62,162 nucleotides of DNA from the IMG/VR virus record IMGVR_UViG_3300031576_000512, positions 1 through 62,162 of that record; one strand, 5' to 3'. The DNA comes from a virus (lineage: Duplodnaviria > Caudoviricetes). Positions within the stretch are counted from its first letter, which is position 1; each line of letters begins with the position of its first letter. Position numbers and translations under genes: made by a program. This document shows positions 50,036 through 58,206 of this stretch, piece after piece. The notes under the pieces were generated by a model, which saw only the letters and a program-made list of their open reading frames with translations, was not told the DNA's origin and did no database searches.

Positions 50036-53000
50036 ATGCCCAGTATCATCACGGTGGGTCCGAATGTAAATGTGCCGGATGCTGCCGAGAACAAGACTGT
50101 CGCTCCAGCTACGACTCTCGGACCGGCCCCTGCTCAACGATCCATCGTGGCCGGCCCGAAGCCTGAACCAGTCACGATGCGCGCATTCGGTGATTCCAAT
50201 GCAACCAGGGAAGCCATCTACAGCAATGTGATGAAGGCAGCTCAGTCAATCCAACCCGTCTCCAACTCGCGCTACACGTTGTCTCTGCACAATCCTCAAT
50301 GGGCTGACAATCCAGAAGTCTCCATCATCGATCGCAAGAAAGCCATCTTGCGTGGCGAGACTCTGAATCGTCGCTTGCGTGGTCTCTGGCGGCTATCGGA
50401 CACCCAGGGCAACGTGCTTGGCGAGCGCACAGCAACTGTTGCTCACGTGCCTCGTATGACCAACCAGGGCACGTTTGTCGTCAACGGCTCAGAGTACACA
50501 CTCGGGCATCAGATGCGTCTGCGCCCTGGTGTTTTTACTCGTCGCAAGGAAAACGGCGAGCTAGAGAGCCACATCAATATCATGCCTGGTAAAGGTATGA
50601 GTCATCACTATTTCCTGGAGCCGGAGACTGGCGTCTTCAAGATCCGTGTCGGACAGTCTAACATGCCGCTCATCTCGGTCATGAAGGCAATGGGCGTCTC
50701 CGACAAAGAGATGTCTGCTGCCTGGGGCAGTGAACTGCATGGCATCAACATGCAGAAGGATGATCCACGTGCCATCGATAAGCTCTATGCTCGTCTCATC
50801 GGCAAGAAGGGTGATCCCCAGGCTTCAGCAGATCAGAAACGTGAGGCGGTCGCCAAGGCATTCAACGATATGGAGCTTGATCCAGAAGTCACCAAGCGAA
50901 CGCTGGGGCAGCCATTCCACAAATTGAGCAAAGAAGTCGCGCTGGCAACAACCAAGAAGCTCTTGGCTGTCAGTCGTGGTGAAGCAGATACGGACGATCG
51001 TGATGCGCTGGCCTTCCAGCATTTCATGGGTCCGGAGGACCTGTTCGCCGAGCGTATTGGTCGTGACAAGCGGGTCTTGAATGAACTGCTGTGGAAGGCA
51101 TCTACCCATGGCAATCTGGAGAAACTTCCGACGGGTGCCTTCACGCAGCATGTTCACGCTGCGCTATTAGATAGTGGCCTGGGTCAGTCTCTGGAAGAGA
51201 TCAATCCAGCTGACGTGTTCGATCAGCAGACTCGCGTGAGTCGGCTTGGTTATGGTGGCATCCCGTCCATCGATGCTGTTCCTGATGAGGCTCGCTCGGT
51301 CCAACCGAGTCATCTTGGCTACATCGACTTGCTACGCACACCGGAGTCATTCAAAGTCGGTGTCGATAGTCGTGTGAGCTTTGTGGCCAAGAAGGGCTCC
51401 GACGGTCGCATCTACACACCATTCACCGATGTCAAGACTGGGCAGATGGTCTATCGCAGCCCTCAAGACGTGGCCGACATGACTCTGGCCTTCCCGGGAG
51501 AGATGGAGAAGGGCAAGCCGTTGGTTGCGGCCATGGTTGGTAGCAAGACACGATACGTGCCACGCGATCAAGTCAACCTGATCATGCCTCATGCTGAGCA
51601 CTGGTTCAGCCCGATCAACAACATGGTGCCAATGAAATCCGCCGTGCAAGGCCAGCGAGCTTCCATGGCTTCTCGCTTCATCACCCAGGCACTGCCAGTC
51701 AAGGATGCGGAATCTCCGTTCGTCCGTGGTCAGGTGCCTGGCGCTGTGGGGCGTTCCTTCGAGGAACATTACGGACATCAGGTTGGTGCCGTCTTCGGCG
51801 AGAAGCAGGTTGGTCGTGTGGCGAAGGTTGGTCCTGATTCGATCTCTGTGAAGTATGCTGATGGTTCGACCAAGGAACATGAGCTCTACAACAACTTCCC
51901 TTACAACCGAAAGACCTACATCCACAACACACCTCTGGTGAAGGCTGGCGATCCTGTGCAACCTGGCCAACTTCTGGCTAAGTCGAACTACACCGACGAC
52001 AAGGGCCATGTCGCATTGGGTAAGAACCTGCGCGTGGCCTATGTTCCATTTCGTGGGCTAAACTACGAGGATGCCTACGTTATCTCACACTCGGCGGCTG
52101 AGAAGTTGTCATCCGAGCACATGTATCAACACAACCTGGAATGGGAAGAGAAGCACCGTAAGGGGCTCAACAGCTTCATCAGTATTTTCCCTGGTGCCTT
52201 CGAGAAGAAGCAACTCGTCGGCATGGACAGTGATGGTGTGATCAAACCAGGCACAGTCATCCGACCTGGCGATCCGGTTGTGCTGGCTGCTCGTGAACGC
52301 GAGTTGTCGCGCAAGCAAGTTCACGCTGCTCACAAGGGCAGCTTCGTCAATGATTCCATTACCTGGGATCATCATGCCGAGGGTGTCGTCACTGATGTTG
52401 AGAAGACAGAGAAGGGTGTTACTGTCGCGATCAAGAGTTTGAACAAGATGCAGGTCGGCGATAAGATGTCGGGTCGCTACGGTGACAAGGGCGTCGTGGC
52501 CGAAGTCATCTCCGATGATCAGATGCCACACGACGATCAAGGCCGACCGTTTGAAGTCCTGGCCAATCCGCTGGGTATTATCAGCCGGCGCAATCCGGCA
52601 CAGAAGGTTGAGGCTACTCTCGGTGCAATTGCTGAGAAGACTGGCAAGCATTACTCCGTTGACGACTTCTCGAACATCAACGACTTGAATGAGTACGCTA
52701 TCAGTGAACGGCAGAAGTATGGCGTCAACAACTACACCAGCATCAACGATCCAACAACCAACAAAAAGATCGATAACGTCTTTACTGGCAATCGCTTCTT
52801 CATGAAGCTGCACCACACGTCAGAGTCAAAGGGCCAGGGACGTGGCTTGGGTGGCTACACTGCCGAGGGCATGCCGGCCAAGGGTGGTGCTGAGGGCAGC
52901 AAGCGGATGGCCCTCATGGATGTCAACGCCATGCTATCACACGGCGCTCTGGAGACGCTTCGTGATGCCAAGCTGATCCGTGGGCAGAAGAATCAGGAAT

Positions 53001-56319: not shown

Positions 56320-58206
56320 ATGCTCCACACAACTGCCGGTCAACTTGCCATCAACGAACTTCTTCCGGATGAGCTGCGCGACCATAAGCGCATCCTCGAC
56401 AAGAAGGGCATTCAGCAGCTCCTCCAGACTGTTGCCGAGAAGCACCCGGACAAGTACCGTGACATTGCTCACGGCCTTTCTAAGATCGGCTACCAGTCGG
56501 CTTATTACACAGGCGGCCACAGTTTCGACCATGTGCATCTGCGGCCGTCAGTTGCAGGTTTGAAGATGCGCGAAGAGATCATGCGGAAGGTCGATCAGAT
56601 CTACGCTGATCCGAATTTGGATGACAAGGCCAAAGAACACAAAGTGGTGGAGGAGACGCTCAAGTACACCAAGCCGATGGAAGATGCAATCTTCAAGGAA
56701 AGCACAGCCGAGAATAATCCTTTAGCACACCAGGTCATCTCAGGTGCTCGTGGCAGTCCATCGAACCTCAAGTCGCTGCGTGGTTCAGATCTGCTCTATG
56801 TCGATCACAAGGAAAACCCAATTCCGGTCCCGATCCTGCGCAGTTACTCCGAAGGGCTTCGTCCGGTTGAATACTATGCCGGCACCTTTGGTGCTCGGAA
56901 GGGTGTCATGGACACCAAGTTTGCCACTCAGGATGCCGGTGCGCTATCGAAGCAATTCAATCAGGTTGCTCATCGCCTCATCGTCACTAAACACGATCAC
57001 GACGATCCCACCAAGCATGCTAATCAGGGCCTGCCGGTCAACCTTGATGATCCTGATAATGAAGGTGCTCTGCTGGCTTTTCCGATTGGCGGGTATCCTC
57101 GCAACACCATCCTGCGGCCGAAGATTATTTCGCATTTGAACAGCCTTGGCGTCAAACGGATTGTTGTCCGCAGTCCAATCACTACTGGCCCGATGGATGG
57201 TGGTCTGTACGGTCGTGATGTTGGCGTGCGTGAGCGTGGCGGCATCTCACCACAGGGAGACAACATTGGTATCGCAGCTGCTCAGGCTCTTTCCGAGCCT
57301 CTGGCTCAGGCTCAGCTTAGCTCGAAGCACTCTGGTGGTGTTGTCGGCGCAGCTAAGGGTGTCAGTGGCTTCAAGCTCATCAATCAGTTGACTCAGGTGC
57401 CCAAGACATTCAAAGGTGGGGCGGCTCATGCTCAGCTCGATGGCCGGGTAGGCGACATTGAGGATGCACCACAAGGCGGTCACTACATCGCAATTGGTGG
57501 CCAACGGCATTACGTTGGCACTGACTATGACCCTCTGGTTAAACGTGGTGATGAAGTTGAGGCTGGCGATGTGATCTCCGATGGCATCCCTAACCCAGCG
57601 GAGATTGTTCGACATAAAGGCATCGGCGAAGGCCGCCGGTACTTCGTGAACTCGTTCCGTCAAGCCTACAAGGATTCGGGCTTGCCACATCATCGTCGCA
57701 ACATTGAGATCATGGCACGTGGGCTTATCGATCACGTCAAATTGACTGAGGAACATGGTCAGTACGTCCCGGGCGATGTTGTTCCTTACAATCGTCTGGA
57801 GCACACATATCAGCCACGCGACGGACATCAAGTCATGGAACCCAAGCGTGCGGTAGGTATGTACTTGGAGAAGCCGGTACTGCATTATTCAATCGGCACC
57901 AGGATTCGGCCCAGCACATTGAACGATTTGAACGAGTTTGGTGTCAATAAAGTTGCCGTTCACAAAGACCCGCCTCCTTTCGAGCCAGAGATGATCCGTG
58001 GAATGGAGAACCTCAGTCACGACCCGGACTGGATGGTTAGATTCCTGGGCTCCTACCAGGAGAAGAATCTTTTGCGGGGCGTGCATCGTGGTGCGGTCAG
58101 TGATGAGAAGGGCACCAGTTATGTGCCGGCCCTGGCACATGCCGTTGACTTTGGCAAGGTTGGCCCAGTCAAGCCATGGAAGCCAAGCTCCATCTTCAAG
58201 ACTTGA
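56320..58206 (+). CDS. RNA polymerase beta' subunit, C-terminal part
   Basis: TTAGQ, SGARGS, EGL..EY...GARKG..DT..T.DAG (bridge helix), GIAAAQALSEP..Q...SKHSGG (trigger loop). Confidence 0.93.
   Translation: MLHTTAGQLAINELLPDELRDHKRILDKKGIQQLLQTVAEKHPDKYRDIAHGLSKIGYQSAYYTGGHSFDHVHLRPSVAGLKMREEIMRKVDQIYADPNLDDKAKEHKVVEETLKYTKPMEDAIFKESTAENNPLAHQVISGARGSPSNLKSLRGSDLLYVDHKENPIPVPILRSYSEGLRPVEYYAGTFGARKGVMDTKFATQDAGALSKQFNQVAHRLIVTKHDHDDPTKHANQGLPVNLDDPDNEGALLAFPIGGYPRNTILRPKIISHLNSLGVKRIVVRSPITTGPMDGGLYGRDVGVRERGGISPQGDNIGIAAAQALSEPLAQAQLSSKHSGGVVGAAKGVSGFKLINQLTQVPKTFKGGAAHAQLDGRVGDIEDAPQGGHYIAIGGQRHYVGTDYDPLVKRGDEVEAGDVISDGIPNPAEIVRHKGIGEGRRYFVNSFRQAYKDSGLPHHRRNIEIMARGLIDHVKLTEEHGQYVPGDVVPYNRLEHTYQPRDGHQVMEPKRAVGMYLEKPVLHYSIGTRIRPSTLNDLNEFGVNKVAVHKDPPPFEPEMIRGMENLSHDPDWMVRFLGSYQEKNLLRGVHRGAVSDEKGTSYVPALAHAVDFGKVGPVKPWKPSSIFKT

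Follow-up and report, generated by a model that had tools for sequence, protein, structure and literature searches.

What kind of RNA polymerase (RNAP) does a phage possess when one of its genes carries the whole bacterial beta subunit together with half of beta', and the rest of beta' is left to a second gene? This question is raised by a locus in the IMG/VR virus record IMGVR_UViG_3300031576_000512 (Duplodnaviria; Caudoviricetes), which was analysed over its entire length (62,162 bp; hereafter the window) and is estimated to represent ~31% of a genome. A preliminary description of the window had proposed a compact, bacteria-like RNAP at this locus, and that proposal is supported by the present analysis: the locus encodes a real and new form of phage multisubunit RNAP, of which metagenomes contain many examples and one cultured representative is available. 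Our best explanation, to which we give a probability of roughly 0.6, is that the two genes encode the catalytic core of a phage-encoded, bacterial-type RNAP composed of two polypeptides, and that this core would operate free of alpha and omega, with the phage's own sigma-70-family factor, and would be packed in the virion as in Salmonella phage Arash. Homology, motifs, fusion, split position and conservation carry this explanation; independence from alpha and omega, sigma dependence and virion packaging are what we infer beyond them.

Two polypeptides for one polymerase core

In the first gene (coordinates in Table 1) the reading frame of a whole beta continues into the N-terminal half of beta' (beta'N), which places both catalytic barrels in a single protein of ~1494 aa. 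This central claim of the preliminary description is borne out by Pfam and by alignments. Rpb2_6 (residues 620-946, 159 bits) and Rpb1_2 (residues 1359-1425, 80 bits) score over the Pfam cut-off, with Rpb2_3 and Rpb1_1 matching under it; among solved structures, residues ~110-1050 match bacterial beta chains (E 1e-64 to 1e-65) and residues 1122-1494 correspond to Thermus beta' 450-830 (E about 1e-50). Residue numbers of the fusion protein given here are those of the 1498-aa form that starts at the TTG. The likely true start is the ATG at 50036, since GGAGG is located 5 nt upstream of it and a database protein identical to the fusion protein (P0003) is 1494 aa long.

The beta part is without counterparts of E. 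coli/Salmonella beta 220-332, 383-413, 938-1049 and 1125-1178. Its barrel motif GDKMSGRYGDKG aligns with GDKMAGRHGNKG of Salmonella, and G812, D813, K814, G820, K822 and G823, which include both active-site lysines (K814 and K822), are unvaried across 96 relatives. At the junction the end of beta, ..GINVQREGS, pairs with ..GINIELEDE of Salmonella beta, and there is no extra linker before a beta' N-terminus that is short of ~17 residues.

The remainder of beta' (beta'C) is encoded ~1.8 kb downstream, in a frame that is open over 56272..58206 on the + strand (644 aa from a GTG, the form used for the motif numbers of beta'C), with ATG 56311 or 56320 as the most likely start. Pfam recognizes Rpb1_5 in this protein (75 bits), which corresponds to the C-terminal half of beta', with matches in Thermus, Mycobacterium and E. 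coli (E about 1e-33); in the PDB search the first 153 aa alone produced chance-level matches, and a 270-aa query was required. The structure prediction that had been suggested as a check gave an AlphaFold model (pLDDT 88, pTM 0.78) that superposes on bacterial beta' chains (TMq 0.59-0.69). Alignments confirm that the bridge helix and the trigger loop reside in this separate protein (631 or 628 aa). The trigger-loop His is unvaried in 88 relatives, the loop has no SI3-type insertion, and the C-terminal region H of beta' is retained.

We thus picture polypeptide 1 as what would be a complete, insertion-free beta placed head-to-tail with beta' from about residue 17 to about 555 (E. coli numbering), its beta'N portion presumably furnishing a clamp that is short of its Zn-binding domain, together with the clamp helices and the barrel with the Mg-binding DFDGD. 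Polypeptide 2 would contribute the rest of beta', namely the funnel, the bridge helix, the trigger loop, the jaw and the clamp's C-terminal portion.

Two mechanisms that might join the halves were considered and rejected. A split intein with trans-splicing is excluded because the alignments leave no room at either end: the fusion protein aligns to beta' until its last residues, and beta'C does so from about its 4th residue. As for an intron or a frameshift, the spacer in the window consists of three packed open reading frames (ORFs) that are conserved in relatives; the corresponding spacer is 4.8 kb long in Arash, with opposite-strand genes in it, and about 0.6 kb in Vibrio phage D69.

The counterpart of the rifampicin region of beta (51170-51262 and 51329-51376; residues about 383-413 and 436-451) is strongly diverged from that of four bacteria. 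E. coli D516, H526 and R687, at positions that we take to govern rifampicin resistance, are replaced by E, Q and T respectively, and there are many more changes. Because the pocket is so heavily altered, its sequence suggests that the window RNAP is insensitive to rifampicin.

A family of fused polymerases

When the fusion protein was compared by tblastn with 50,697 phage records, with coverage of at least 80% in one place as the criterion, four records passed: those of Salmonella phage Arash and of Vibrio phages D69, D181 and D148, each ~30% identical to the query. Their layout is that of the window, a beta::beta'N protein of about 1525 aa ending at the same beta' position plus a beta'C protein of about 606 aa (gp206, 1525 aa, and gp216, 606 aa, in Arash; 1527 and 609 aa in D69). 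Metagenomes contain much more of the same. The best 120 metagenome matches to residues 900-1498 have PF00562 and PF00623 in one protein in every case (120/120) and PF04998 in none; most of these proteins are 1440-1500 aa long, those with inteins being longer, and they lie on contigs of up to about 222 kb. The best 120 matches to beta'C are all separate Rpb1_5 proteins. A closer relative, a 94-kb record (G001), has an RNAP 83% identical to that of the window.

That the fusion might be an artefact of assembly or sequencing, or a decaying gene, is so improbable as to be negligible. An assembly artefact had been named as something that could refute the preliminary description, and it is ruled out by the recurrence of the fused ORF in independent assemblies, the four cultured-phage records and all of the best 120 metagenome matches. 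Moreover, the catalytic residues are unvaried, and peptides cover 100% of Arash gp206 (PMC10585845). Nothing was found in favour of an artefact, the sole oddity being a 337-aa ORF (49007-50020) in the same frame as the fusion gene, from which it is separated by a TAA and one codon before TTG 50024; as the two genes are in different frames in the related contig L004, the shared frame is probably chance.

Phylogeny, another of the suggested checks, was done with a quick maximum-likelihood tree of beta' with 16 rows. The 7 rows with the fused layout form one clade (SH-aLRT 100) that has two deep branches, one containing Arash and D69 and the other the window with its metagenome relatives. The tree took in four bacteria, and jumbo phage AR9 served as a long-branch outgroup; because of this and the small number of rows its deep placement relative to bacteria is unreliable. 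A beta-based tree was dropped because PF00562 gave no match in phages Y65, Va2, EP_H11 and RP13.

Mobile inserts are found in relatives at RNAP sites that are conserved. In L004 there is an in-frame insert in beta (9182-10161), with which the ORF reads 1835 aa (the contig gene call, P0006, is 1785 aa), and an HNH-like ORF (13502-13960) directly follows the stop of the fusion gene. Contig L006 has three inserts (4792-5804, 5929-6923 and 11695-12833), of which two lie close to the active-site Lys motif of beta and the third in the bridge-helix region of beta'C. Vibrio phages D181 and D148 have a homing endonuclease inside the gene, and intein or LAGLIDADG domains occur in many metagenome homologues.

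Some records filed as phages (L010, L025, L026 and L027) contain ordinary bacterial rpoB-rpoC beside ribosomal protein genes. Acinetobacter phage MD-2021a and UNVERIFIED Staphylococcus and Enterococcus "phage" contigs are among such misfiled records, which look like host DNA and inflate the lists of phage matches for RNAP queries.

The catalytic motif and the zinc sites

The canonical NADFDGD of beta' was described as reading GMDFDGD in the window, and so it does. This change is unremarkable within the family: xxDFDGD is found in 117/120 of the best fusion proteins, and in 88 of those the canonical first Asn is Gly (GADFDGD 72, NADFDGD 22, GMDFDGD 16, NMDFDGD 3, AADFDGD 3, AMDFDGD 1, not found 3). 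Arash and D69 read AADYDGD. While the Asn is usually replaced in relatives, the Asp triad is not; D1404, D1406, G1407 and D1408 are unvaried in 96 of them.

With respect to the Zn sites, which the preliminary description considered lost, both are without Cys in the window protein, but only one of the two losses is general. The stretch that would match Salmonella beta' C70/C72/C85/C88 is deleted, and the whole N-terminal Zn-binding domain is cleanly deleted in 96/96 intein-free relatives and also in Arash and D69; Rhizobium phage Y65, whose beta' is unsplit, retains it. At the second site the positions of C814, C888, C895 and C898 are occupied in the window by H, by T or G, and by two gaps, and no Cys is present in 88/89 close beta'C relatives. 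However, Arash and D69 keep all four Cys there, so that loss of the second site is specific to the clade of the window.

The split point of beta'

The fusion ends at a position equivalent to Salmonella beta' 551-557 in 96/98 family sequences (560 and 570 in the other two), and the element with which beta'C starts matches E. coli ..TTVGR.. at about 569-584. In the cyanobacterial/plastid RpoC2 chain residues 6-14 align to residues 25-29 of the phage beta'C, which puts the RpoC2 start ~15-25 aligned residues beyond the phage split; cyanobacterial gamma extends ~60 residues past the end of the phage fusion. On the other side, beta'N of AR9 (g270) and of coliphage EP_H11 ends ~35 residues earlier, near E. 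coli 517-520. Beta' is whole in phages Y65 and Va2, and in EP_H11 and RP13 it is split yet unfused to beta.

Judged by alignment, the three split sites differ by residue yet share one zone after the barrel, presumably a permissive one. One review has the splits of jumbo phages and cyanobacteria coincide "following the DPBB domain". The split point is therefore new in the sense that it has a residue position of its own (551-557), but the zone in which it falls is shared with cyanobacteria and other phages.

Relation to known polymerases

Fusions of the two large subunits also occur in bacteria. In Helicobacteraceae and Wolbachia the fused beta' is of full length, and alpha and omega are retained along with the Zn sites. 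There, as in the phage family, the beta C-terminus is covalently attached to the beta' N-terminus (PMC7483510), whereas in the phages beta' is cut after the barrel and its remainder is a separate gene. The cyanobacterial/plastid arrangement of rpoC1 (gamma) and rpoC2 likewise divides beta' in the post-barrel zone, but it leaves beta separate and has its boundary offset by ~15-25 aligned residues. The layout is thus distinct, as had been claimed, from whole rpoBC fusions, since this fusion stops at beta' about 555 with regions E to H apart, and from rpoC1/rpoC2.

The phage multisubunit RNAPs that have been studied, those of phiKZ and AR9, are highly divergent, consist of four or five pieces and lack sigma. 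According to reviews, these jumbo-phage enzymes resemble the fused family in consisting of phage beta/beta' homologues with beta' split after the barrel, in the absence of alpha and omega and in having one virion set. In contrast to this family, they have beta distributed over 2-3 polypeptides, never in fusion with beta', they lack a sigma-70 homologue, and they exist as two paralogous sets (virion and non-virion). Their sequences are also far more divergent. Two reviews, as far as their treatment of phage enzymes was covered here, deal only with such split jumbo-phage enzymes without sigma.

The mReC phages of Weinheimer and Aylward (2020) are likewise uncultured tailed-phage contigs, some of them over 200 kb (97 contigs in the set), and their beta and beta' are close enough to the cellular ones to be detected with COG hidden Markov models (HMMs) (PMC7481178). 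The main text of that report mentions no beta-beta'N fusion or split, employs "fused" and "fusion" for crAss phage only and contains the word "sigma" 0 times (PMC7481178).

Arash and D69 share with the window the deletion of the N-terminal Zn-binding domain, the lack of any alpha or omega that could be found, and, taking the relatives of the window into account, a sigma-like gene of the gp10 type; they differ from it in the second-site Cys, in AADYDGD and in the genes between the RNAP genes, which are unrelated. Identity with an already characterized family had been named as a second way in which the novelty could fail. The layout is indeed present in the published Arash genome, but in the text of that report the proteins are labelled simply beta (gp206) and beta prime (gp216) and the fusion goes unremarked (PMC10585845). 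We found no description of a phage beta::beta'N fusion in the literature searched, which included the consulted text of PMC7824862, PMC7598289, PMC7481178, PMC13282480, PMC13573597, PMC12619734 and PMC10585845, the supplements of the mReC and Arash reports being outside this scope.

The family is much nearer the bacterial enzyme than the jumbo-phage RNAPs are, yet it drops alpha, omega and the Zn-binding domain (in the clade of the window the second Zn site as well), and it seems to retain a sigma-70-type factor. It makes testable the need for the alpha scaffold and the Zn sites, the tolerance of beta' to cuts at this place, and the kinship of phage and cellular RNAPs, and in Arash, which grows on a laboratory strain of Salmonella, it has a cultured and tractable member. 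If the minimal, sigma-dependent reading is true, the family would constitute a natural experiment on the dispensable parts of bacterial RNAP and would offer a compact, probably rifampicin-insensitive and sigma-programmable transcription system.

Alpha, omega and sigma

Searches for alpha (PF01000, PF01193) and omega (PF01192) matched none of five records (the window, G001, a further record G002, and the genomes of Arash and D69, both complete) but 14/14 control genomes; in the window a six-frame HMM search likewise found no Sigma70_r2, Sigma70_r4, alpha or omega. Absence from the window itself says little, since it covers so small a part of the genome. The statement that alpha, omega and sigma are lacking therefore stands for the window and, as regards alpha and omega, for Arash and D69 too, but a sigma-70-like gene is present in G001, Arash and D69.

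Artificial beta-beta' fusions function in E. coli. In our preferred reading the covalent beta-beta' link would take over the assembly role of the alpha dimer (and of omega), from which it would follow that the core needs neither. A hybrid enzyme is another way of doing without these genes, the two phage polypeptides associating with the host's alpha dimer and/or omega. The phage subunits are far closer to bacterial beta/beta' than the jumbo-phage ones (best solved match E 1e-65; PF00562 at 159 bits here and unmatched in four other RNAP-encoding phages), and they retain region H at the beta' C-terminus, which is where omega binds in bacteria. However, the complete relatives Arash and D69 also go without detectable alpha and omega genes, the enzyme, if virion-packaged, has to function upon injection, the scaffold could plausibly be replaced by the covalent fusion, and jumbo-phage RNAPs, as reviewed, function without alpha or omega. 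We consider the hybrid to be distinctly improbable.

The sigma-like gene was recognized in G001, where a 266-aa ORF resembles Arash gp10 (blastp E 3.5e-13). The family to which they belong is large (1885 representative clusters at 50% identity, E up to 0.001); among 102 aligned members, Sigma70_r3 is present in 98 and r4 in 42. Its profile matches the solved SigA, RpoD, RpoS and FliA chains over sigma-70 414-599 (E down to 1e-13) and detects a single copy in each of G001, Arash (9.6e-27) and D69 (1e-22), with no match in the window or G002. Region 2 gives only a weak Pfam match in Arash gp10 (17.5-18.8 bits), while Sigma70_r2 is over the cut-off in Arash gp196 and in one D69 protein.

Sigma bound to the clamp helices of beta' is the textbook complex. 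When a complex of the window beta'N (residues 1050-1498) with the G001 sigma-like protein was predicted, the score was 0.64 (none of 3 controls rose above 0.00), a mark that 58/80 solved complexes and 2/110 mismatched pairs reach; contacts agree to at least 54% between runs, the partner has a pLDDT of at least 67, and the predicted interface is the clamp helices (residues 1207-1247). Because this pair is the textbook one, the result shows likeness to solved holoenzymes rather than binding by this copy.

We suggest that promoters would be read by a phage sigma-70-family protein of the Arash gp10 type seated on the retained clamp helices. If sigma is used in this way, the gene for it in the present phage must lie outside the 62-kb window, since none is in it; a sigma-like partner gene very probably exists there. 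Alternatively, the core could be sigma-independent or employ an unrelated initiation factor, as do phiKZ (gp68) and AR9 (gp226), and the sigma-70-like proteins of the relatives would then redirect the host polymerase. In line with this, phage sigmas that act on host RNAP are, according to reviews, common in large phages without an RNAP of their own, and the jumbo-phage RNAPs lack a sigma homologue. Furthermore, the window has no sigma gene, conserved but unassigned ORFs lie between the RNAP genes, and the flap-tip region is 8 residues shorter and diverged. In bacteria the flap tip binds sigma region 4. On the other hand, a gp10-type sigma occurs together with the fused RNAP in each of the 3 records of sufficient size to judge (Arash, D69 and G001), the clamp helices are kept as the predicted docking surface, and gp10 was detected in Arash virions alongside the RNAP (PMC10585845). 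Sigma independence seems to us unlikely, if somewhat less so than the hybrid.

Virion association

The idea that the enzyme travels in the virion comes from mass spectrometry (MS) of Arash virions, in which, according to the published text, gp206 headed the list with 3516 spectra and 100% coverage, ahead of the major capsid protein (1333), gp216 (1210), helicase gp217 (1148) and gp10 (467) (PMC10585845). The Arash RNAP genes are situated among structural genes (portal gp204, structural gp213 and gp218), and those of the window share a strand with the gene for a virion structural protein (37062-38423). By tblastn there is one RNAP place per record in Arash and in D69 and no second set was seen, although a very divergent set could escape; tblastn or a six-frame search likewise gives one place per record for the window. 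By extension from Arash, our preferred reading has the enzyme packed in the virion and injected, where it would transcribe the early genes independently of the host polymerase, and it may be the only polymerase of the phage.

The alternative is that in this phage the enzyme is unpackaged and is made after infection for middle/late genes, early genes being left to the host polymerase. The evidence for packaging is from Arash alone (~30% identity), and the Arash MS list also has evident non-structural enzymes (PMC10585845). Yet the gp206 spectra exceed those of the major capsid protein (PMC10585845), and the position of the RNAP genes with respect to structural genes and the lack of a visible second set both point the other way. 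Of the alternatives considered here this is the one we take most seriously, although we still regard it as unlikely.

A number of points weigh against the preferred reading. The Arash and D69 proteins, from which much of it is drawn, are only ~30% identical to those of the window and belong to the other deep subclade. The Arash MS list runs to 116 proteins, ribonucleotide reductases included, and its authors, while proposing early transcription, allow for carry-over of abundant proteins (PMC10585845). Sigma dependence is argued from relatives and from a model of a textbook interaction, the ~31% complete window having no sigma gene of its own, and the altered flap tip fits it poorly. Very divergent proteins of the alpha or omega type can escape HMM searches, the core could recruit alpha and omega from the host, and the three spacer ORFs could be further subunits.

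A more far-reaching version can be formulated, in which a widespread family of phages of roughly 180-230 kb would have the smallest known sigma-dependent bacterial-type RNAP, made of two polypeptides and free of Zn, alpha and omega, with the link replacing the alpha scaffold, a sigma of its own, packing in the capsid and service as the single polymerase for all stages. We put this forward tentatively, as a possibility on which we would not wager.

An SNF2-family helicase is encoded at 35231-36724, with SNF2 and Helicase_C domains, and is a homologue of Arash gp217 (28% identity, E 1e-58). In Arash the gp217 gene adjoins that of beta'C, and the protein is abundant in the virion MS data (PMC10585845). 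Possibly it is a transcription-coupled helicase that travels with the RNAP. When 11 Arash proteins, among them the portal, the terminase and the two sigma factors, were compared with the window by tblastn, gp217 was the sole convincing match; gp199 produced one weak match (E 3.9e-4).

Gene context and neighbouring features

Nearly all the long ORFs of the window are on the + strand, and the phage families matched include, besides the virion structural protein and the SNF2-type helicase, a DNA ligase, an HNH endonuclease and peptidases. The features of the RNAP locus are collected in Table 1.

Table 1. Features of the RNAP locus (positions in the window; fusion-protein and beta'C residues numbered from the TTG and GTG, respectively)
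Feature	Position	Strand	Remarks
beta::beta'N fusion coding sequence	50036..54520	+	1494 aa from ATG; frame open from TTG 50024 (1498 aa)
beta-homologous part	50195..53116	+	residues about 58-1031; whole, continuous
beta barrel motif GDKMSGRYGDKG	52457..52492	+	residues 812-823
beta/beta' junction	53105..53203	+	beta C-end straight into beta' N-terminus (alignment with Salmonella rpoB/rpoC)
site of deleted beta' Zn-binding domain GLFDEKLTGGHNGNRW	53231..53278	+	residues 1070-1085, no Cys
beta' clamp helices	53642..53764	+	residues 1207-1247, match Salmonella beta' about 258-305
catalytic motif GMDFDGD	54227..54247	+	residues 1402-1408
palindromic motif AGTA-N6-TACT, one copy	54314..54327	.	inside 3' end of fusion gene, ~200 nt before next ORF
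195-aa ORF	54522..55109	+	starts 1 nt past fusion TGA; L004 counterpart 42% identity; no family match
Pro/Gly-rich ORF	55120..55986	+	288 aa from GTG, probable start Met 55147 (about 280 aa); no family match
83-aa ORF	55990..56241	+	directly 5' of beta'C gene; kept in L004 (78%), L005/L006 (36%)
beta'C coding sequence	56311..58206	+	631 aa (ATG 56311) or 628 aa (ATG 56320); regions E to H of beta'
bridge helix GARKGVMDTKFATQDAGALSKQFNQVAHRL (GARKGVMDT...)	56890..56979	+	residues 207-236, aligned to Salmonella and Thermus beta'
second Zn site remnant VRSPITTGPMDGGLYGRDV	57166..57222	+	no Cys
trigger loop IGIAAAQALSEPLAQAQLSSKHSGGV (...LSSKHSGG)	57265..57342	+	by alignment

The three tightly packed ORFs of the spacer (54522-56241) keep their position in relatives down to 53% RNAP identity and are not conserved in Arash or D69; a protein similar to the Pro/Gly-rich one occurs at the same position in L004, L005 and L006. 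They could be RNAP-associated or virion proteins. The 83-aa ORF was considered as an omega-like subunit and found no support for this: it has no Pfam or PHROG match, its predicted fold is beta-rich (pLDDT 76.7), and Foldseek gave no PDB match at E up to 0.001.

The motif AGTA-N6-TACT, with an A/T-rich centre, occurs in 8 copies of 14 nt in the window (1047, 5632, 9208, 16867, 26415, 34240, 46759 and 54314), against 0.09 expected. Three of them sit 26-27 nt upstream of ORF starts (1073, 26441 and 46786), and L004 retains the one before 46786 in the orthologous position (4221; ORF at 4249). We regard the motif as a candidate promoter or regulatory element of the phage.

Elsewhere in the window, positions 1-10000 have a G+C content of 0.575-0.61, against 0.50-0.57 in the rest, and contain four large ORFs with no PHROG match, three of which were also scanned against Pfam and gave no match there. 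Finally, the region 28222-33184 encodes a 625-aa protein in which a 2H phosphoesterase domain is combined with GNAT acetyltransferase and HAD/kinase-like ones; the protein after it, of 1032 aa, has a domain resembling peptidase C39.

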